DNA from: Chiloscyllium plagiosum
Taxonomy: Eukaryota
Length of the DNA: 64,000 nucleotides
Direction of reading: 5' to 3'
Assembly (NCBI RefSeq): GCF_004010195.1
Contig: NC_057751.1
Span: 15,182,597 to 15,246,596 of the forward strand
In this document: positions 12,270 to 63,168 of the stretch, one piece after another
Numbering within the stretch: position 1 is the first letter of the stretch
How the letters are laid out: each line of letters begins with the position of its first letter
Notes under the pieces: model-generated
The model's database searches: none
Told to the model about the DNA's origin: nothing
The model's input: the letters and a program-made list of their open reading frames with translations, nothing else
Made by a program: the position numbers and the translations under genes

Positions 12270-12420
12270 CATTTAAACAGTGGCTCCCTGAGCAGCACAT
12301 TTCATCACGTTGGCAGCGTCTCCTCAGCCCCCTGCAAGCAGTGCAGATGGGTTGGTCATGGCGGGAAGTGAGGCAGAAACTCCCAGGGCCACAATCAGGA
12401 TCTGCCAAACACTGAGACAC
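12270..12420 (-). CDS. DKK4: Dickkopf-4 coding exon 2 (cysteine-rich domain 1), VSQCLADPDCGPGSFCLTSRHDQPICTACRGLRRRCQRDEMCCSGSHCLN
   Basis: Not in the ORF track; translated by hand. Acceptor ttccccag, donor gtaagg, 151 nt, phase 0 to 1. Has the Dkk N-terminal Cys spacing and the CRGLRRRCQRD motif shared with human DKK4. Confidence 0.96.
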
Positions 12421-40800: not shown

Positions 40801-42164
40801 TCACCAGTCACCATTCTAAATCACTCTGAACAGCGATCTGTTACAACAATGGGACATAATTTCCTCCATCCAGAATATGCAGTTTGTTACTTTAATAGCG
40901 TCACAGAATTTTAATTTTAGTATCAGTTCCTGCACCATTGAAAAGATCTTCATTTGCACCCATCCATAGATGTTAGTGACTGCCATCCAGTCACAGAGCA
41001 TGGAAACAGACCCTTCGGTCCAACCAAGTCTTAGCCATTATGGCATAGGAAGGGATCATTTCATTCCTCATACATCCTACTCCCCCAGTTGATCTTTGTT
41101 TGTGTCAGTATACTTCATCATCTTGGTTTCCATCACCTCCATAAGTAGAAATAACGAGGGCATAAAAAATGCTTCTCTTTCTCAAAATCTAGACATTTGT
41201 CCCCTTGTTCTTGTATAAGCAGCTAACAGAAACCACTTATCTTTTTTACATTCTTGAATCACTACCATGTAGTGCAGGTACATCCACCATGCTGTTAGGG
41301 AGGGAATTCCAGGATTTTGAGCCGGTGACAATGAATAAACAGTTGTGATGTGGCAGGGTTGTAGGTGGTTGTCACTGCCTCCAGGTGTTGATGTGAGGGT
41401 TGTGTCGCAGGCTGGAGCAGTATAATCAGGTTAACAAGGAAGTGGAGCAGGAGGTGTATAGAGTGTGAGCTGGAAATGATGAGCCAGTATCTTAATGACA
41501 ATTCATGTTTTCACTTAATCTGTTAACTCCATTACTGTGTAGAACAGCAAATATGACATTTCCTTCACTTTGAGGCCATTTCTTTCAATATTAGGAAACA
41601 GTAATATCCAAAGATGCGAAATTGCCCACAGTCGTCAAGGATTGAGTAGGCTGGGCCAATATGCCAGGAAGCATGCAAGGATAGAGGGATGGGATTGGTC
41701 TGGGTCAGTTGCTCCTTGGAAGTTTGGTGTGGACTCAGAGTCATTGAGCTCTACAGCATGGAAACAGACTCTTTGGCTTCATTTCGTCCAGGCTGACCAG
41801 ATATCATAAATTAATCTAGTTTTGTTTGCCAGCATTTGGCCCATATCCAACTAAATCTTTCCTGTGCATACACCAATCGAAATGCCTCTGAAATTTTGAA
41901 ACTGCAGCCACCTCTGATAGCTCTGACTCGACGGACCGAATGGCTCTGCTTGCATCCTATGGGGATTCTTTCCAGTTGCATCAGGTGAACAATAGGGTTT
42001 AGAGGTGGACGCAGTGCTATCTGGAATGATGAGCCAGTGCTCTGGGAAGCTGGTGGACTGTGTTCTGTCGGAAAACCTCCGGCCAGAGGGGGCAGTGTAA
42101 GCGGAGGGCGGTCCGGTCGGGACGCATGCGCCATGTGCAGCCTCAGCGGGCAGGCGCAGTGAGA

Positions 42165-42245
42165 CCCCAGCTCTCTCCTTCACGTTGCCCTCTCGGAGGC
42201 AGCGGCTCACTCGGCTTTGATCACCAGGAGGCATCGAGGCTGCAG
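42165..42245 (+). other. VDAC3: VDAC3 non-coding first exon (5' boundary approximate)
   Basis: Consensus donor CAG|GTAAGG at 42243-42251 inside the CpG island, downstream of the NRF1 motif. The TSS is not determinable from sequence. Confidence 0.7.
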
Positions 42246-42390
42246 GTAAGGAGAGCACAGCGCACTCCCTGCTCTCCCCGGGGGTTGGGCGGTGGCGAAG
42301 GCGAAGAAAGAGAGAGTCCCCGGCTGCCGTCCTGGAGCCCGCCCGCCAGCGAGCAGAGGCCTTACCCAAGGCCCCCTCCTCTCCCTGACC

Positions 42391-43588: not shown

Positions 43589-44392
43589 CATAGAGTCATA
43601 GAGGTGTACAGCATAGAAACAGACCCTTCGGTCCAACCTGTCCATGTCGACCAGATAACCCAACCCAACCCAATCTCGTCCCACCTGCCAGCACCTGGCC
43701 CATATTCTTCCAAACCCTTCCTATTCATATACCCATCCAAATGCCTCTTAAATGTTGCAATTGTACCAGCCTCCACCACATCCTCTAGCAGCTCATTCCA
43801 TACACGTACCACCCTCTGCATGAAAAAGTTGCCCCTTAGGTCTCTTTTATATCTTTCCCCTCTCACCCTAAACCTGTGCCCTCTAGTTCTGGACTCCCCG
43901 ATCCCAGGGAAAAGACTTTGTCTATTTATCCTATCCATGCCTCTCATAATTTTATAAACCTCTATAAGGTTACCCCTCAGCCTCCGACGCTCCAGGGAAA
44001 ACAGCCCCAGCCTGTTCAGCCTCTCCCTATAGCTCAAATCCTCCAACCCTGGCAACATCCTTGTGAATCTTTTCTGAACCCTTTCAAGTTTCACAACATC
44101 TTTCCGATAGGAAGGAGACTAGAATTGCACGCAATGTCCTGTACAGCCGCAACATGACCTCCCAACTCCTGTATTCAATACTCTGACCAATAAAGGAAAG
44201 CATACCAAATGCCGCCTTCACTATCCTATCTACCTGCGACTCCACTTTCAAGGAGCTATGAACTTGCACTCCAAGGTCTCTTTGTTCAGCAACACTCCCT
44301 AGGACCTTGCCATTAAGTGTTTCAGTCCTGCCAAGATTTGCTTTCCCAAAATGCAACACCTCGCATTTATCTGAATTAAACTCCATCTGCCA
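43589..44392 (-). mobile_element. Relatively young CR1/HER1 LINE 3' fragment in VDAC3 intron 1
   Basis: Long open peptide KLERVQKRFTRMLPGLEDLSYRERLNRLGLFSLERRRLRG...; tail (CTATGACT)-like. Confidence 0.95.
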
Positions 44393-45470
44393 TGGTCAGC
44401 ATTACTCATACAGACTTTGCATTACAAGTCATGTGTGCTCTCTCTAATCTTGTTGAAACTTAACTTAACCATACCCTTAACAAAAGTAATCATCTGTCAA
44501 TTTGTCAATACTATGTTCTCGTGAGAAACATTGAGTGGCCCAAGATGCCTCTCAGAGGTTTCCTATCAAATTGAGAAGGTTAATGGGTGATCTGATCGAC
44601 ATCTTCAAGATATGAACAGGACCAGACAGGGTAGATCAAGGTCAATGATTTCCACTGGTTGGAGATTCGAGAACGAGAGGTAGCAGAGTCTGAGAATGAG
44701 GGTCCAGAGGTGGCAGAGAGCTGGATTGGTGAATTTTTTGGGGCAAGTTGTCTTGCCTGTATTTGACGGTTTACTTTGACTTGTCAGAATCTGAACATTT
44801 TTCAGTGTGTCGCTCAAGTTGGTTTCCTTTGAAATATTAGAAGTTGGTGCTTTACTGAGCAGGATGAGATGCTGAAGGATCTAATTGGACCTTTGAATTC
44901 TTAGGCCCATTGCTGTGTTATTATTCCAGCACTGGAGGTTGTACCTGTGTCAGATTACTCTTCTGCAAGGTGGCAATCTGTAAATGATACTTTTTCACCC
45001 TTGAGGCTACTAGTGGTGTGTAACATTAGTACAGATCAATCACTGGTGTTATGGTGGGAGAGGCAGCTTAATTGAGCAACAGAAGTGTATTACAGAACTG
45101 TATTCAATTTGATGAGTTCTTTTAATGCTGCAGGGAGAGGAATTTCAGTATTTGTAACTCAATGGCACAATTTGTAACAGTGCCAGTGTGTTGGATCTTA
45201 TAAAGATGCATTGGTGTCAGTCCACATTTACAACTCTGGTAGTAATATTGAGAAAGATGTGTGACATATGTCACTTGAAGCACTGAAGTTTGCAAGTCAT
45301 TGTGTAGCTGTCTGTTGATCTTTGAATTCTGAAGTTTCACTGTGACTAAAGATGACCAATAACTGTGGCTTCATGTTGTGCTTACTACATGAAGAATTGA
45401 AGTAAGAGATGTTCACATGTCAGTTACTTTGTGTTGGTGCCTAATGAATTGTCTCCTTTCCAAAGGCAGA

Positions 45471-45537
45471 ATGTCTGTGCCACCATCATATGCAGACTTG
45501 GGGAAATCCAGTCGGGATCTCTTCACGAAAGGATATG
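45471..45537 (+). CDS. VDAC3: VDAC3 first coding exon, [22 protein letters not shown](G)
   Basis: Classic VDAC N-terminal helix, 67 coding nt, donor gtgag. The acceptor is either AAG at 45463-45465 or CAG at 45467-45469. Confidence 0.97.
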
Positions 45538-49731: not shown

Positions 49732-49781
49732 GGTTTGGTTTGGTGAAGCTGGAACTCAAGACCAAATCATCGAGTGGAGTG
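49732..49781 (+). CDS. VDAC3: VDAC3 coding exon, (G)FGLVKLELKTKSSSGV
   Basis: 50-nt exon with ttag acceptor and gtgag donor; frame continues from the previous exon. Confidence 0.97.
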
Positions 49782-50766
49782 GTGAGTTTTCAAAGTTTGT
49801 GGGAGGCAGATGTGGTGGACCAGGTTATTGAGAAAGCAGAAACACTCCAGATCAAAATGGGCAGCAATGTCTTAATCAGATAGTGAGAAACAAGACATAA
49901 AGTGTATGTCTTGGTTCATCAATTGCAGGTGAGAGACTTCTCCACAGGCTGGTAGAGTTGCTGTAGGTAATCATTTCTTCTGATGATCAGAGAAGAGTGT
50001 TGTGAAAGATTTGTGTGAGTGGCAAGCTGTGAAGATCATAACAAATAGGTACAGTAGTCAGCCTGATTTGGCCCTTTAGAGTCTGCTTTGCTGTCAGTAA
50101 GATGATGGCTGACTACATTGTGGCCTTAAATACACTTGCCCGATTGTCCCATATATATTTAAAAGCCAAGTCTCCACTGTTTTCTCTTATACTGGTACTA
50201 TTGTATGCCATTCTCCTTGCAATAAATGCCAGAATTCCATTTGCCATGCTCTGAGGACTGTATATATGCTGTAGGTGAGGCTGGGACAAGGTAACGTTAT
50301 GTTGTATCTCGGTATAGAAATGTCAAAGACAGTGCAGTTCCATCAGATAGCTTTAATATTTGTGCATTACTTTTGTTGGCCCAGTATGGATTAATTTTGT
50401 TTGATTATTGAAACAACATGTTCAGACTCGAACGTTCAGTCACTTCTGCAGATGTTTTTCCTAAAAATAACATTTATTCCTGCTCCTCGGTATCCTGCAT
50501 CAAATTTTTCCCTGTTGCGTTGGGCTTCAGATTGGTTCCACAGGTCGGTGCAACATCGAGGCCAAAGGGCCTGTACTGAGCTGTAGTGTTTTATGTTCTG
50601 TGTAGAAACATGACGGCTATACTATCATGAATAAATAGACTGGTAGAATGGAATCCACTGACCATGAGTGTGTTGAAGTTTGCAAAATCTTTTCTCTGCT
50701 TAAAAGTTGAGACTGCCCCCAGGGCTCTGATTTCTCATCTCATGTCTGTTAGACTGCATATTGTCT

Positions 50767-51368
50767 TGTTGTGGACGAGGCCAGACATTCTTAAGCAGGC
50801 AGGCCAGACTGTAACTTTGCAATTTGTTTCAGTAAGTGCACAGAGAAAATTACCCGGACTAAGTTCGCTTGATTGACGACCGGGTTTTAAAACAGACAAA
50901 AATTTATTCATAAAATTACAGAATGTAACACTATGAACAGAATATACACAGAACTCAGTCTATCCAAACTTGACTTGATTCTGCTCTTCTGAAAATATAT
51001 AACAGTCGCAATAAATAACCCCGTTAAACATATAGCAAAAATGAAACAAAGGCTTACAGGTTGAAGTTAGTAGGGCAGAAGGAGAAAGAGTTTGGCAGCC
51101 TGTTTCCACACAGCCCACTGCTGAACTGACTTAAACAAGACTTCAGCTTTCAGGACTGACCACTTCACTTTCATTATACAGGTCACTTCTAAAACATAAA
51201 GCTTTGACCTAAAGTTTCATCTGTTCATGTAAAAACAAAAATGCCTCTCAGTAAGCCCTTTCATCTCTCGACCAAACCAGTCGTTTCAGATCCCAGACTG
51301 TTTTATGACCCCTCTGAGAAAAATCAAGGATACAGTATCCTTTTAGAAAAAGGACCAGCTTTGTGACA
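50767..51368 (-). mobile_element. Solo LTR with 4-bp TSD
   Basis: TGT...ACA termini; GTCT duplicated at 50763-50766 and 51369-51372; minus-strand AATAAA near 50903. Confidence 0.7.
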
Positions 51369-51484
51369 GTCTGTTAGTACTCATGTACAGACCTGATCTT
51401 GCAAGCTGTAATCTAACCTACTTCCTTCCTGTTTGCTTTCTCTGTCCTGCTGCTTGACCACCTTGTGCTGGATTACTCCATCAG

Positions 51485-51487
51485 ATG
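51485..51487 (+). CDS. VDAC3: Putative alternatively spliced 3-nt microexon (ATG, Met) of VDAC3
   Basis: ccatcag|ATG|gtaaga. Branch point CTAAC at 51413-51417, a long pyrimidine tract, TGC motifs, and no AG between 51406 and 51482. Lies in the phase-0 intron after Val39, where mammalian VDAC3 has a known ATG mini-exon. Confidence 0.85.
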
Positions 51488-53100
51488 GTAAGATAATTTG
51501 ACTCAATCCACTTGCCGACTCTGATTCTCCTTCTCTGTCCCCCTGATTAAACCAGTGAAGTGTCTGTGTCAGAGCAGCATGCATTTGATTTCTTCTGTTG
51601 TGTTTGCAGTCCTTTTCTTTCCAGTATTTTGTCACGAGGAATTGGTAGGATATTCCTGAGTTGATGGGAAACAGGGCCAAATCTTCAGATTGTGATTTTT
51701 TTTCTCTTAGTCATCTAACTCGTGCACCATTTTAAACTCTCACTTTCCTTTGGGAGTGCAGTGTAAAAACTGAATTGGAAAGGACCATCAATGCAGTTGA
51801 TCTGTCCAGTGGAAGTGCATTTGGTCTCATTTTGGGATTGAAAGCTCTGTACCAGATTATAGCATGGTTAATTTCCCCTCGTTCACCTCTCTGTAATTTC
51901 TGACAGGACTGTTACGTATATAAGTATCTGTGAGAATTCTGTTTTCATGTTTCTTGTATGAGAGGCCACTGTGAGAGCTCTAGTTGTTCTGTACTGTATT
52001 TACTCACCGGAACACCACTGGCAATATTGCTAACATATACACTCTGCTACTATTGCATTGTTCTACAGTTTGGCTTTGTGCTGTTACTGCTGACCTTGAG
52101 TAACTTGGGTTATCTGCCAAAACTCTCAGCATAGTTCAGGACTTCAGTTTGTGTTAGAGTATCAGTCAACTTGTACTGCATAGCAGTAAAGCCCCAATTC
52201 CCTCTGCAACCTATGATTTCCATGGTAACCCAAGAGAATTAAACTTCATGTTCTGTGGTGTTTGGTAGTTGGTGCAGAATCTGTTACTTTTCAGTGAGTG
52301 GCAAAGCTTCATACCTGGAGCTGAGTGTCTCAGCTGCATGTATTCAAAGCTGCGATCTCATTGTGGAGGATCAATAGAGTAGAGTCACTGTGAACAGTGT
52401 TTCCGGGATAAGCAACCTCTCTACTTCCTTTAGATGAAATATGAAAAATTGAAAGAAAAGGTAACCTTAGGCTACCAAATCTCTTAATTGTCTTAAGCAT
52501 CTGAATGCGATCAGAATTATTCATGAAGAACAACATTTGGGACATCACTGAAGGGTGGTGTTGAACTTTGAGCTAAACCTGTTGCAGGGGTAGGAGGCTG
52601 CCATGGAGACATCCAGTGGTTTTGTTCTGTGGTTGCTCAGTATGTCAGTTTTATTTTTTGTTCATTCTTCTTTAGCATTTAATAAATAGAACTTTGCAGG
52701 CAGCCCTGGCTTGATTGCTGTTATATCTTTAGGCCACATTGATCTGTTAAGCACTCCATCGTGGAGGGAGGTGCTCCAGATCTGTGTCTTGATTTGCAGA
52801 GCAATCTGTCTGAATAGTAAAGTGAGCTAGAAAGTCCAGCAGCAGGAGAATGATTCATAAGCGTTGGTGGTAGAGGGAGAGTGGAAGGATGCGAAACAAC
52901 CCACACCACTATGATTTGCAAATTTGCATTACATCACTTCCAAAAAATATTTCACTTTGTACGAGTTTATTGACTCCTGCTTTATTGGTGAAATGGAGTT
53001 AACGTATTGAATTTTGGATTAGACCATATATAGTTGGATAACGTGTAACGTCACTGAACTGAAATACGGACGACTACGGACAGGCTGTTTTGATATTCAG

Positions 53101-53232
53101 GCAGAAGTGGGTACTGCAGATGCTGGAGATTAGAGTCAAGATTAGAGTGGTGCTGGAAAAGCACAGCAGATCAGGCAGCATTCGAGGAGCAGGAAAATTG
53201 GCATTTGAGGCAAAGGCCCTTCCTCAGGAATG
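53101..53232 (-). mobile_element. 132-bp Penelope-like terminal fragment
   Basis: Reverse complement of the same terminus seen at 56480-56600; 11-bp TSD TTGATATTCAG at 53090-53100 and 53233-53243. Confidence 0.85.
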
Positions 53233-53326
53233 TTGATATTCAGTATGTTTTATCTTGGTGTTGCTGCCAGTGGCAAAGGGAGGACCCCCTTTGATTATGC
53301 TTCTTCATATGCTTTTTTTTTTACAG

Positions 53327-53479
53327 GAGTTTACCACCTCTGGCTCTTCAAATACTGACACGGGCAAAGCCACAGGCAGTCTGGAAACCAAATACAAGCT
53401 AAAAGAGTACGGACTAACCTTCACTGAAAAATGGAATACTGATAATGTTTTATCCAGTGAAATAACCATCGAAGATCAG
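53327..53479 (+). CDS. VDAC3: VDAC3 coding exon, [51 protein letters not shown]
   Basis: 153 nt, T-rich acceptor ttacag, donor gtaggt; porin motif [12 protein letters not shown]. Confidence 0.98.
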
Positions 53480-54785: not shown

Positions 54786-54838
54786 CTTGCTAAAGGACTA
54801 AAGCTGACTTTTGACACGACATTTGTACCAAATACAGG
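54786..54838 (+). CDS. VDAC3: VDAC3 coding exon, LAKGLKLTFDTTFVPNT(G)
   Basis: 53 nt, cacag acceptor, gtaag donor. FVPNTG is the VDAC3-type form; VDAC1 and VDAC2 have FSPNTG. Confidence 0.97.
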
Positions 54839-55349
54839 GTAAGATTTTAATTTTTATGTTTGGTTCAGCCATGGTGGAGATAGGGTTTGCATAGTCACCC
54901 TAATGATTCCACTTGTAATGTGTGCAGTCCCACTTCAGTGAGTAATGTTGTATCATCGGCATGGGTCAGTGAGCTTGTGTAGGTTTTCTTAAGGTGTCAG
55001 AGGTGAGGCAGGGAAGGGAGGTGCGCTTGTGACTGACTGGAAAACAATAATGATGTTGGATGTGAGAGCCCAATTGAGTGTGGTTGCTAACGAGTTTTGG
55101 AGGAAGCCTTTAGTATTTATGCAGCACTTTTTAATAAAATGAAAGGCAATTGACACGAGCATTTTTAAAGCAAAGTTTGCCACTGAGCTACATGGGTTTA
55201 TTGGTAGGTTTAAAGGAGTACCTTCAAGGAAGAAAATGATGTACCCCGAGAAGGAATTCCATGGTCTGGGGCTCAGGCAATTGAAGGCATGTCGAACACT
55301 GGAGCAAGGAAAATCTTAAATGCCCAAAAGACTGCATTTTGTTAATGCA

Positions 55350-55623
55350 GAGATTAGATTAGGTTCCCTACAGTGTGGAAACAGGCCCTTCGGCCCAACC
55401 AGTCCACACCGACCCTCCGAAGAGTAACCCACCCAGACCCATTTCCCTCTGACTAATGCATCTAACACTATGGGCAATTTAGCATGGCTAATTTACCCTG
55501 ACCTGCACATCTTTGGACTGTGGGAGGAAACCTACGCAGACACTGGGAGAATGTGCAAACTGGCTGGAATCGAACCTGGGACCCTGGTGCTGTGAGGCTG
55601 CAGTGCTAACCACTGAGCCACCA
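55350..55623 (-). mobile_element. HE1-type V-SINE
   Basis: GGTGGCTCAGTGGTTAGCAC A box, GGTTCGATTCC B box, V-domain-like core and (TAATC)n tail. Confidence 0.9.
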
Positions 55624-55629
55624 TGAGAT

Positions 55630-56602
55630 TCTCCCAATTCCTTCGTCTCCGCCGCATCTGCTCCCAGGAGGACCAGTTCAAAATACGTACAACACAGATG
55701 GCCTCCTTCTTCAAGGACCGCAATTTCCCCCCCGACGTGGTCGACGGTGCCCTCCACCGCATCTCCTCCACTTCCCGCTCCTCCGCCCTTGAGCCCCGCC
55801 CCTCCAACCGCCACCAGGACTGAACCCCACTGGTCCTCACCTACCACCCCACCAATCTCCATGTACAGCGCATCATCCGCCGTCACTTCCGCCACCTCCA
55901 AACAGACCCCAGCACCAAGGATATATTTCCCTCCCCTCCCCTATCAGCTTTCCGTAGAGACCACTCCCTCCGCGACTCCCTTGTCAGATCCACACCCCCC
56001 ACCGACCCAACCACCACTCCCGGCACCTTCCCTTGCAACCGCAGGAGGTGCAACACTTGCGCCCACACCTCCCCCCTCACCTCCCTCCAAGGCCCCAAAG
56101 GAAACTTCCATATCCGCCACAGATTCACCTGCACCTCCACCCACATCATCTACTGCATCCGCTGCAGCCGGTCTGGCCTCCTCTATATTGGGGAGACAGG
56201 CCGCCTACTTGCGGAGCGATTCAGAGAGCACCCCTGGGCCACCCGGACGAACCAACCAACCAGTTTCTTCATCCCCCCTCCCCCCACCCTGTCTCAGCCG
56301 GATCCCTCCCGCCCGGCACCGCCTTCCTGCCCTGCAGTCTTCTTCTTGCCCTCTCCGCCTCCACCCTACTCCGACCTATCACCTTCACCTTTACCTCTTT
56401 CCACCTATCACATTTCCAACGCCCCTCCTCCATGTCCCTCCTCCCTACCTTTTATCTTCTCCTGCTGAACACTCTCTGCTCATTCCTGAAGAAGGGCCTG
56501 TGCCCGAAACGTCGAATCTCCTGTTCCGTGGATGCTGCCTGACCTGCTGTGCTGTTCCAGCAATAAAGTTTCAACTTTGATCTCCAGCATCTGCAGACCT
56601 CT
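55630..56602 (+). mobile_element. 5'-truncated Penelope-like retroelement with GIY-YIG endonuclease
   Basis: Frame FSQFLRLRRICS...HQD*TPLVLTYHP...PCNRRRCNTC...FTCTSTHIIYCIRCSRSGLLYIGETGRLLAERFREH with one stop at 55821; 12-bp TSD CCACCATGAGAT at 55618-55629 and 56603-56614. Confidence 0.93.
56482..56517 (+). ncRNA. Minimal type I hammerhead ribozyme motif in the Penelope terminus
   Basis: ATTC-CTGAAGA-A-GGGC-CTGT-GCCC-GAAAC-GTC-GAAT: stem I ATTC/GAAT, core CUGANGA and GAAA, stem II GGGC/GCCC, GUC triplet. Confidence 0.7.
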
Positions 56603-57583: not shown

Positions 57584-57811
57584 TAAGAAGAGTGGAAAGC
57601 TGAAGACTGCCTACAAACGAGACTACGTGAACCTGGGCTGTGATATTGATTTTGACTTTGCTGGCCCCACCATCCACAGCATGGCTGTGTTGGGCTATGA
57701 GGGCTGGTTTATTGGGCACCAGATGGCCTTTGACACTGCCAAATCCAAGCTGGCACAGAACAACTTCTCTCTGGGCCATAAAGCAGGGGACTTCCAATTG
57801 CATACCCATGT
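57584..57811 (+). CDS. VDAC3: VDAC3 coding exon, KKSGKLKTAYKRDYVNLGCDIDFDFAGPTIHSMAVLGYEGWFIGHQMAFDTAKSKLAQNNFSLGHKAGDFQLHTH(V)
   Basis: 228 nt, gacag acceptor, gtaagt donor. FDTAKSKL.QNNF and DFQLHTHV are VDAC3-type. Confidence 0.98.
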
Positions 57812-58572: not shown

Positions 58573-61500
58573 ATGCGGAGGTGCCAGTGTTGGACTGGGG
58601 TGGACAAAGTAAAAATCACATGACACCAGATTATAGTCCAACAGGTTTATTTGAAAGTACCAACTTTCTTCTTCTGCTGCTCCTTCGTCATGTAACTTGT
58701 GGGGCAGGATCATAAGAGAATTTAAAGCAAAAAAATCGTAGTGTCATGCAACTGGAACTATTGAACACACCTAGATTGTTGTAAAGTCTTCAATCTTTTA
58801 GAATAGGTTGATGGTGTCGATTCATTAATATCGTTAGTAGCCAAGTTCAGTACCCATGAGGGTGGCCTTAACTGGTTCCTTGGGTTCATGTCATATGACA
58901 GGTGACCCCATAACACTAGGCACTGTCACTCAACCACACACGCACGCACGCTCGCTCGCTCTCTTTCTCTCACATGCTCACAATCACACAGACCCTCTCT
59001 CAGACATTAGCTGTCTCTCAGGCACCCACACGTACACCGAGCACACTCTTGCCCTCGGACACACCTTCTCACAGGTTTACACTCTGCCACACTCATGCAT
59101 ACATGCACTCACACACGTTCACATACTCTCTCGCTTCTCTCCCTTTCTCTGTTTTGCACCCCCCAACCACATATTTGCATTTAGAGTCACAGAGATGTAC
59201 AGCACGAAAACAGACCCAACTCTTCCATGCCAACCAGATAGCCTAACCTAATCTAGTCCCATTTGCTTGCACTTGGCTCACATCCCTCTAAACCCTTCCT
59301 ATTCACGGATTCCTGTGCCAGCTCATTCCATACACGCACCATCCTCTGCGTGAAAAACTTGCTCCTTAGATCTCTTTTAAATTTTTCCCCTCTCACCCTT
59401 AACCTGTATCCTCTAATTCTGGACTATCCCACCCCAGGGAAAAGACCTTGTCTATTTATCCTATTCATGCCTCTGATGATGTTATAAACCTCTATAAGGT
59501 CACCTCTCAGCCTCCAACTGGAACAAAGAACAAAAAAAACTTCCAGAACATTTTGGCCCTCCAAGCCTGACCCGATCCAAATCCTCTGTCTGTAGCTCAA
59601 ACCCTCCAACCCTGGCAACATGCTTATGAATCGACTGAACTCTTTCAAGTTTCACAACATCCTTCCAATAGGAGGGGTCTAGAATTGCACAGGATATTCC
59701 AAAAGTGGCCTAAGCAAAGTTCTGTACTGCCACAAAATGACCTGCCAACTCCTTTACTCAATACTCTGACCAATAAAGGAAAGCATACCAAATACCTCCT
59801 CCACTATCCTATCGACCTGCGACTCCACTTTCAAGAACCTGCACTCCAAGGTCTCTTTGTTCAGCAACACTCCCCAGAACCTTACCATTAAGTGTATAAG
59901 TCCTGCTCTGATTTGATTTTTCCAAAATGCAGCACCTCACGTTTATCTAAATTAAACTCCATCTGCCACTCCTCAGCCAGTTGGCCCATCCGATCAAAAT
60001 CCTGTTGCACTCTGAGGTAACCTTCTTCACTGTCCACTACACCTCCAATTTTGATTTCATTTGCAAACTTACTAACTATACCTATTATGATGACATCCAA
60101 ATCAGCACCAATTCTTGTGGCACTCCATTGGTCACAGGCCTCCAGTCTGAAAAACAACCCTCCACCACCACCCTCTGTCTTCTACCTTTGAGCCAGTCCT
60201 GTATCCAAATGGCTAGTTCTCCCTGTATTCCGTGAGATCTAACCTTGTGAACAGTCTGCCATGAAGAACCTTGTTACTGAAGTCCATATATAGATCACGT
60301 CCATTGCTCTGCCTTCATCAATCCTGTTTGTTACTTGTTTGAAAAACTTAATCAAGTTTGTGAGACATGATTTCCCACACACAAAGCTAAGTTGACTACT
60401 CATAATCAGTCCTTGCCTTTCCAAATACATGTAAATTCTGTCCCTCAGGATTCCCTCCAACAATTGGTCCTCCGCTGATGTCAGGCTCACTGGTCTATAG
60501 TTTCCTGGCTTCTCTTGAGCACCTTTCTTAAATAGTGGCACAACGTTAGCCAACCTCCAGTCTTCTGGCAACTCATCTGTAACTGTGGATGATTCAAATA
60601 TCTCAGCAAGGAGCCCAGCAATCACTTCCCTAGCTTTCCACAGAGTTCTAGGAAACATATGATCAGGTCATGGGGATTTATCATCCACTTTTTTTTGTGT
60701 TTTGAGACATCCAGCACCACCACCTCGATAGTATGGATAGTTTTCAAGATGTCACCATCTATTTCCCCACATTGTATATCTTCCATGTCCTTCTCCACAG
60801 TAAACACTGATGCAAAATTCTTGTTTAGTATCTTCCCCCAACTACTGTGGTTCCATACAAAGGCTGCCTTGCTGATATTTGAGAGGCCCTTTTTCTCCCT
60901 ACCGTTTTGTCCTTAATGTATTTATAAAATCCCTTTGGATTCTCTTTAATCCTATTTGCCAAAGCTGTCTCATGTCCCCTTTTTGCCCTCCTGTTTCCCT
61001 CTCAAGAATGCTCCTACTGCCTTTTATACTCTTCTCAGGATTCACTCAATCTCTCCTCTCCCTGTCTGACATATATGCTTCTTTCTTTTTGTCAACCAAA
61101 ACCTCAATTTCTCCAGTCATTTAGCCTTCCCTCCATCTTCCAGCCTTGCCTGTTATCCTATCAAGGAACATACTGTTTCTGGACTTTCATTATCTCATTT
61201 TTGGAGGCTTCCCATTTTCTAGCAGTTCCTTTACCTGCCAACATCTGCACTCAATCAACCTTTGAAAGTTCTTGTCTAATACCGTCAAAATTCGCTTTCC
61301 TCCGATTTAGAACTTCAACTTTTAGAGCTGGTCTATCCCTTTTCATCACAATTTTACAACAAATAGAATTATGGTCGCTGGCCCCAAAGTGCTCCCCCAC
61401 TGACACCCCAATCACCTGCTTTGCCTTATTGCCCAAGAGCAGGTCAAGTTTTGCACCTTCTCTCATAGGGACACCCACATGCTGAACCAGAAAATTTTCT

Positions 61501-61884
61501 TGTATACACCTAAATTCTTCTCCATCTAAACCCTTAACGCTATGGCAGTCCCAGTCTATGTTTGAAAGAAGTTCTGTGATTTACATCTTAATGAACTGAA
61601 ACCTGCAACCCGTTCTAAAAGATGAAAGACTTAACAGCAATCTAGGTGTGGTCAGTATATCGTATCAGTTGCATGACACTTAAATATTTTGCTCAAAATT
61701 CTGTCTTATGACCTTGCGCCACTGGTTCCCTGATGAAGGAACAGTGCTGTGAAAGCTCGTACTTCCAAATAAACTTATTGGACTATAACCTGGTGTTGTT
61801 ATTTTCTAACCTAATTTATAGGCACAGAAATTAAATGATCAAACAAATGATGTGAGAGGAGTGTTGACAGGCTGAATACTACAT
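58573..61884. mobile_element. Penelope-like insertion with inverted termini, interrupted by CR1
   Basis: 58575-58810 and 61595-61810 are inverted copies; 11-bp TSD CTCCTGACTTG at 58562-58572 and 61885-61895. Confidence 0.75.
59183..61565 (-). mobile_element. CR1/HER1 LINE, ~2.4 kb (end of endonuclease domain, RT, tail)
   Basis: PMREGAKLDLLLGN...GEHFGASDHNSI, LPEDWRLANVVPLFKKG..EKPGNYRPVSLTS and GKSCLTNLIKFF. Confidence 0.93.
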
Positions 61885-63017: not shown

Positions 63018-63168
63018 TAATGATGGTGCTGAGTTTGGTGGCTCAATTTACCAGAAATTGAATGACAAAGTGGAAACTGCTGTGAACCTCGCTTGGACTG
63101 CTGGTAGTAACAATACTCGTTTTGGGATTGCTGCCAAGTACCAAATTGACAGTGACACCTTTGTATCA
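63018..63168 (+). CDS. VDAC3: VDAC3 coding exon, [50 protein letters not shown]; the gene continues beyond the window
   Basis: 151 nt, ctctcag acceptor, gtgagt donor. [17 protein letters not shown] is VDAC3-type. Confidence 0.97.

Follow-up and report, generated by a model that had tools for sequence, protein, structure and literature searches.

The VDAC3 locus

The window analyzed here is a 64,000-nucleotide stretch of Chiloscyllium plagiosum contig NC_057751.1 (positions 15,182,597 to 15,246,596), and all coordinates are counted from its first base. Its plus strand carries a gene for the mitochondrial channel VDAC3. A GC-rich segment at 42000-42245, followed by a donor at 42246, is likely the non-coding exon 1. 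The coding part of exon 2 (45471-45537, codons 1-23) and exon 5 (54786-54838) were placed using the sequence and the loose ends of RNA contigs, exon 3 (49732-49781, ending with codon Val39) and exon 4 (53327-53479) using the sequence and splice joints in RNA, and exons 6 (57584-57811) and 7 (63018-63168) from the sequence, as were exons 8 and 9, which lie beyond the window (L012:980-1037 and 1566-1657). Joined together, the six coding exons of the window and the two beyond it form an open frame of 283 codons that matches protein P0121 at 283 of 283 residues. When an ATG located in the intron between exons 3 and 4 is included, the frame reaches 284 codons and matches P0134 (XP_043537521.1, RefSeq “VDAC3 isoform X2”) at 284 of 284.

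The product is a eukaryotic porin (Pfam Porin_3, 4e-91) with 19 strands in predicted models, and in a tree of 31 chosen proteins it falls inside the VDAC3 branch with a support of 99/98, apart from VDAC1 and VDAC2. Approximately 30 kb upstream, on the opposite strand, lies an exon of a DKK4-like gene (12271-12420, minus strand; Pfam Dickkopf_N, 1e-15), for which six matches out of six are DKK4 or DKK4-like in sharks. In human, too, DKK4 is a neighbor of VDAC3. The tree and the DKK4-like neighbor identify the gene as the VDAC3 orthologue. Exon 4 has at least three matches in the genome, of which the other two are VDAC2-like and VDAC1-like and are located on other contigs.

A few additional features of the gene were noted. 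Two possible acceptors, AAG and CAG, stand 4 nt apart immediately before the start codon in exon 2 (45463-45469). RefSeq also lists a 260-aa isoform (P0123; window 45490-45537, then 53327 onward) that lacks exon 3. Its translation begins out of frame, at an ATG within exon 2, and is back in frame by exon 4, since the last three bases of exon 2 are also ATG; this isoform is probably a non-functional by-product. Several introns are enlarged by repeat-derived stretches, SINE- or LINE-like by appearance (43600-44400, 55340-56600 and 59180-61520).

Architecture of a three-nucleotide exon

The intron between exons 3 and 4 (49782-53326, 3545 nt) is in phase 0 and directly follows Val39. A sequence-only reading of this DNA had proposed that it harbors a microexon consisting of a single ATG codon, cag|ATG|gtaaga at 51482-51493, and the sequence is exactly as described: a 3′ splice site CAG at 51482-51484, where the relative sampled in run X13 has no listed difference, a cassette exon ATG at 51485-51487 coding for Met40 of the 284-aa isoform, and a 5′ splice site GTAAGA at 51488-51493. 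The same reading had pointed to a long pyrimidine tract, TGC motifs between the tract and the 3′ splice site, and an AG-free zone of about 77 nt, all of which are present. The zone measures exactly 77 nt (51406-51482), longer than the 32-64 nt found at the gene's six other acceptors within the window. The tract (51418-51449) contains 27 pyrimidines in 32 positions, with TCTCT at 51439-43. Four TGC motifs (51434, 51448, 51451 and 51466, spanning 51434-51468), where 1.3 are expected per 80 nt, form a candidate SRRM3/4 enhancer; they stand at −51, −37, −34 and −19 relative to the acceptor, the −19 copy being the closest to the AG. The proposed distant branch point CTAAC does occur at 51413-51417, with its A at −69 and the tract directly 3′ of it, but it is one of two predicted candidates, the other being TTGAC at 51454-51458 (A at −28).

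To place these features against background, we used as a control set the 659 YAG-NNN-GT sites found on both strands of 385,600 bases, made up of the window, its 3′ flank and the regions of the two paralogues. A GTRAG donor is found at 21 of these sites, an AG-free zone of at least 77 nt at 8, and an equally pyrimidine-rich upstream region at 3. The microexon site alone combines a GTRAG donor with an AG-free zone of at least 40 nt, and no other AG-ATG-GY occurs in the host intron. A TGC between −22 and −4 is not rare, being present at 160 of the 659 sites. An RNA hairpin switch was also sought over 51405-51500, where folding stability is no greater than that of shuffled sequences (z −0.66), which speaks against such a switch. 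The 11-mer CAGATGGTAAG of the microexon site recurs once in the window, at 2692, with an AG-free stretch of 2 nt; this second copy was set aside as a microexon for want of an acceptor context. Separately, positions 2654-2702 are preceded by a weak acceptor and followed by a strong donor (CAGATGGTAAGT), perhaps by chance or because another gene has an exon there.

Inclusion and skipping in RNA

Twenty-four public runs were listed, 8 were compared with the region and 7 of these gave cover, the single-cell run X24 having no reads there. The runs assembled as contigs were presumed to be RNA, and their tissues are coded. Inclusion was found in one of the seven covered runs (X8) and skipping in the other six. 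The X8 contig, at a depth of 290.7, joins 49781 to 53326 with AT between them, which together with the G at 53326 reads GTG ATG GAG; this is the exon 3-ATG-exon 4 junction that the sequence-only reading had suggested looking for in shark RNA, so that its refuting outcome, a lack of inclusion, did not occur. At its ends this contig continues to exon 2 on one side and exon 5 on the other; contigs that skip the microexon are absent from the X8 listing. The organism sampled in X8 is a close relative, differing from the window at 2 of 154 exon-4 bases. Intronic contigs of the same run have a depth of about 3, and since one of them spans 51340-51486, the X8 organism has the acceptor within its intron.

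The skipping joint was observed in contigs of X1, X4, X6, X9 and X13, and in 7 raw reads of X23, which represent about 2% of that run; as the listing starts at 3 reads per joint, X23 may include the exon at a low level. More generally, the skip-only runs do not prove zero inclusion, because contigs drop minor variants. Both splice forms are thus present in shark RNA, with the frame kept in each.

These observations bear on the possibility that the site resembles splice signals by chance, or that it reflects an allele or an error of assembly. Such an explanation could draw on the second, contextless copy of CAGATGGTAAG and on the prevalence of skipping among the covered runs. However, it is refuted by the spliced X8 contig unless that contig is mis-assembled, and it is at odds with the annotation of both isoforms in each of several shark species and in a skate, as well as with the uniqueness of the site context in the control set. 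Furthermore, shifting the donor would insert Val and shifting the acceptor Gln, so neither can account for the Met. We regard chance or artefact as scarcely credible.

Conservation and age of the exon

The sequence surrounding the microexon appears conserved in the one relative for which this was compared. Over 51340-52299, the X13 contig differs from the window at 42 of 954 bases, and none of the 34 listed differences falls within 51404-51515. For the preset interval 51410-51500 compared with the rest, Fisher's test gives p = 0.012, rising to 0.076 should a single one of the 8 unlisted differences fall inside. The adjoining stretch 51201-51339 (139 bases) is skipped by contigs of several runs, either because this genome has an insertion there or through the influence of a repeat.

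Proteins provide a broader view. At the exon 3-exon 4 junction, 222 fetched proteins comprise 146 with no insertion, 12 with Met, 19 with Leu, 1 with Gln and 44 outside the search pattern, the latter being fragments or carrying other residues; inspection of 20 such or doubtful rows added 3 more Leu. All these counts reflect database protein annotations. The 12 Met proteins belong to a chimaera, a skate, three sharks, bichir, paddlefish, trout, lungfish, two frogs and one unnamed source. Because Met isoforms occur in cartilaginous fish (chimaera, skate and sharks) as well as in bony vertebrates, the exon is dated to before the split of the two groups, as had been proposed from the shark sequence. 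Leu is inserted in 22 bird or lizard records (one lizard species), the three added by inspection having it before Asp-Phe; P0008, P0009, P0024, P0146, P0159 and P0170 are among the Leu-bearing proteins. The Leu codon is known from protein alone. As Leu cannot arise from tandem donors or acceptors, these residues most likely come from the same microexon with an altered codon. A single goose record has Gln, likely through an alternative acceptor. The insertion is kept in every major jawed-vertebrate lineage met in the protein searches, as Met or Leu only apart from that Gln. No lamprey, hagfish or mammalian VDAC3 was among the proteins returned by these searches.

Among chondrichthyans, XP_043537521.1 is identical to the inclusion product of the window, and XP_041066116.1, XP_038641128.1, XP_032869573.1 and UniRef100_V9L211 carry the same Met, annotated carriers including white shark, catshark, skate and chimaera. 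Annotation is patchy: among the 15 of 28 cluster members listed, a number of further sharks and rays show the 283-type junction only. The expectation that annotations would miss an exon this small was therefore not borne out: the Met isoform is already the RefSeq protein P0134 and is found in other chondrichthyans as well.

The insertion also follows the gene phylogeny. In the tree, all nine insertion-bearing rows are on the VDAC3 branch, including paddlefish and trout proteins labeled VDAC2, and none is among the VDAC1 and VDAC2 rows. The introns of the paralogues in the same genome contain 2 (VDAC2) and 6 (VDAC1) YAG-NNN-GTR sites, all with an AG-free zone of at most 22 nt and none in a good context. 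The exon is limited to the VDAC3 clade; the sequence-only reading had counted it as independent support for VDAC3 orthology. Ray-finned proteins P0073, P0113, P0175 and P0083, labeled VDAC2 or VDAC2-like, carry Met or group with VDAC3.

The microexon as such was known before. A single-ATG exon of mammalian VDAC3 was reported by Sampson et al. 1998 and Decker and Craigen 2000, and the Met that it adds at position 39 has been detected as protein, its relevance being described as not established (PMC7831034, PMC3424414, PMC3106191). The mammalian and shark exons agree in gene, in size and in adding one Met at mature position 39 (40 when the first Met is counted), the mammalian side of this comparison being taken from papers alone. 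In zebrafish, DreEX0084235 (VastDB; PMC12626424) is likewise a 3-nt exon of vdac3, and the ray-finned proteins P0113, P0073 and P0175 have Met at the same junction. Its flanking introns measure 2.6 and 1.9 kb, versus 1.7 and 1.8 kb in the shark. The exon is thus known in mammals and zebrafish, the isoform was already annotated in sharks, and its age is confirmed here. Literature searches listed no paper describing the exon in sharks or its Leu counterpart; subscription papers and preprint supplements, which include a table of microexons from 47 jawed vertebrates that may list the exon, were outside the scope of that search. The word “vdac” is absent from passages of bioRxiv 2026.09.05.749416 and PMC11719525.

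Regulation of inclusion

The shark site displays the architecture of the SRRM3/4 class, namely a predicted distal branch point, a pyrimidine tract, a long AG-free zone, a UGC near the AG and a good 5′ site, matching the signature described for these microexons (bioRxiv 2024.09.17.613571; bioRxiv 2026.01.16.699960). UGC is considered helpful but not necessary for them (bioRxiv 2024.09.17.613571). As in SRRM3/4-dependent neural microexons, which are 3-27 nt long and frame-preserving, it has a distal tract, TCTCT and TGC between tract and AG, and possibly conserved flanks. Unlike the typical hosts of this class, which are signaling or trafficking proteins, VDAC3 is a mitochondrial beta-barrel channel, and SRRM3/4 dependence of its exon seems to differ between zebrafish and human.

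The zebrafish exon is included at 88.9 in neural tissue, 26 in heart, 9.5 in muscle and 0 in liver, and its inclusion changes by −41 upon loss of srrm3/4 (PMC12626424). The human event with which it is paired in that study, HsaEX0070291, a pairing that we took as given, has a neural difference of +1.6 and a regulator response of +5.6 and is classed as not regulated (PMC12626424). Since the human pair shows neither neural enrichment nor regulator response, regulation is not uniform across vertebrates. The sequence-only reading had asserted both an SRRM3/4 signature and a tissue-regulated exon in mammals. The former stands as far as the shark architecture is concerned, but does not extend to the human exon, which lacks the response even though the zebrafish exon depends on srrm3/4; of the latter, a mammalian exon at the same position is described, whereas its human representative is classed as not neurally regulated. 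The tissue pattern, the srrm3/4 dependence and the deletion line discussed below are zebrafish data, the shark exon being known from sequence and from RNA of coded tissues. Another neural exon of zebrafish vdac3, DreEX6047922, is 73 nt long and has no human counterpart (PMC12626424).

We favor the interpretation that VDAC3 contains a 3-nt cassette exon, ancestral to jawed vertebrates, that is likely included mainly in neurons through SRRM3/4, and give it a probability of about three in four. According to this model, the location of the branch point and tract far upstream would leave the 3′ site weak by default, so that the exon would be skipped in most cells. In neurons, the early spliceosome would be brought in by SRRM3/4 sitting on the TGCs close to the AG, with help from the good 5′ site, a step suggested by the architecture together with the zebrafish results.

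An unlikely alternative is that the exon is real but that its control in the shark is mammal-like, depending on muscle or heart factors or on a broad excitable-tissue programme rather than mainly on SRRM3/4, neural control then being a teleost feature. The 1998 work of Sampson is said to describe inclusion of the mouse exon in brain, heart and skeletal muscle, which would agree with such control. So would the classification of the paired human exon, the 26% inclusion in zebrafish heart and the fact that srrm3/4 loss removes 41 of about 89 points in zebrafish (PMC12626424). Against it, the long AG-free zone, the distal tract and the four TGC motifs fit the SRRM3/4 class, and other microexons are reported to keep their response to SRRM4 all the way from shark to mammals (bioRxiv 2024.09.17.613571). 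A downstream GCATG, which the sequence-only reading had highlighted and which would be suggestive of RBFOX, is indeed present at 51577-51581 (plus strand). However, the motif reads AGCATG rather than a conserved (U)GCAUG, occurs in the intron at chance frequency (3 versus 3.0 expected) and is changed to GCATT in X13 by a G>T difference at 51581; it is probably not functional.

Predicted effect on the protein

AlphaFold models of the two isoforms are of moderate confidence (pLDDT 78, pTM 0.61), with a poorly placed N-terminal helix. Both are 19-strand barrels whose best fold match is zebrafish VDAC2 (4bum, TM 0.88); no solved VDAC3 structure is among the 13 PDB matches. Strand 1 covers residues 26-34 in both models, and strand 2 covers 39-48 without Met and 40-49 with it. 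Met is predicted to replace Val39 as the first position of strand 2, leaving the barrel register unchanged, and the strand 1-2 turn, on the intermembrane-space side, is predicted to lengthen from 4 to 5 residues. A need for a hydrophobic residue at the inserted position would fit the use of either Met or Leu. The longer turn would fine-tune contacts at that place and not alter the pore. In the same turn, position 36 points into the intermembrane space, and mammalian VDAC3 has an oxidizable cysteine there (PMC5179545); residue 36 is also Cys in chimaera, whereas this shark has Ser.

The ATG could instead have been an internal start codon giving a shortened VDAC3 devoid of the N-terminal helix and strand 1. 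In the spliced message it has G at both −3 and +4, a good initiation context. However, the Leu inserted in birds and a lizard argues against a start-codon role, the title of Decker and Craigen 2000 states that a truncated isoform is not made, and the full-length Met isoform has been detected as human protein (PMC7831034, PMC3424414, PMC3106191). In addition, loss of strand 1 would keep the barrel from closing as modeled. This explanation is largely refuted and we hold it to be very improbable; the microexon ATG would not act as a start codon.

A different question is whether the extra residue does anything. Splicing could be regulated while the residue has almost no effect, the exon being a harmless passenger of the microexon programme, an explanation that overlaps with the one we favor as far as splicing is concerned. 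The zebrafish line in which the microexon is deleted has no gross defect, and vdac3 is unnamed among the main-text lines with phenotypes (PMC12626424). The reservation expressed in the review literature about its relevance, the restriction of the difference between our two models to turn length, and the change from Met to Leu in birds and lizards all point the same way. On the other hand, the retention of the insertion in every major jawed-vertebrate lineage met in our searches, as Met or Leu only save for the goose Gln, counts against a passenger, as does the apparent conservation of the flanking intron in X13, within the limits of the Fisher values given above. We consider a passenger role possible, at clearly less than even odds.

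Returning to neuronal inclusion through SRRM3/4, a more ambitious extension can be put forward as speculation that is more probably wrong than right. The exon may be a 450-million-year-old neuronal switch in which a longer intermembrane-space turn beside the redox-sensitive position 36 changes the oligomers or partners of VDAC3. Selection would then act on the hydrophobic residue and not on the ATG, and an ancestral SRRM3/4 control would have been kept in sharks and teleosts and lost toward humans.

Significance

Dating of this microexon places one of the smallest possible exons at the base of the jawed vertebrates and provides a mark of VDAC3 among the three paralogues. As a marker, it corrects the “VDAC2-like” labels borne by paddlefish and trout proteins. 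The role of the extra residue has been a question since 1998, and the Leu version, together with the contrast between zebrafish and human, sharpens it. Because regulation differs between zebrafish and human, the shark is an outgroup able to tell which state is ancestral.
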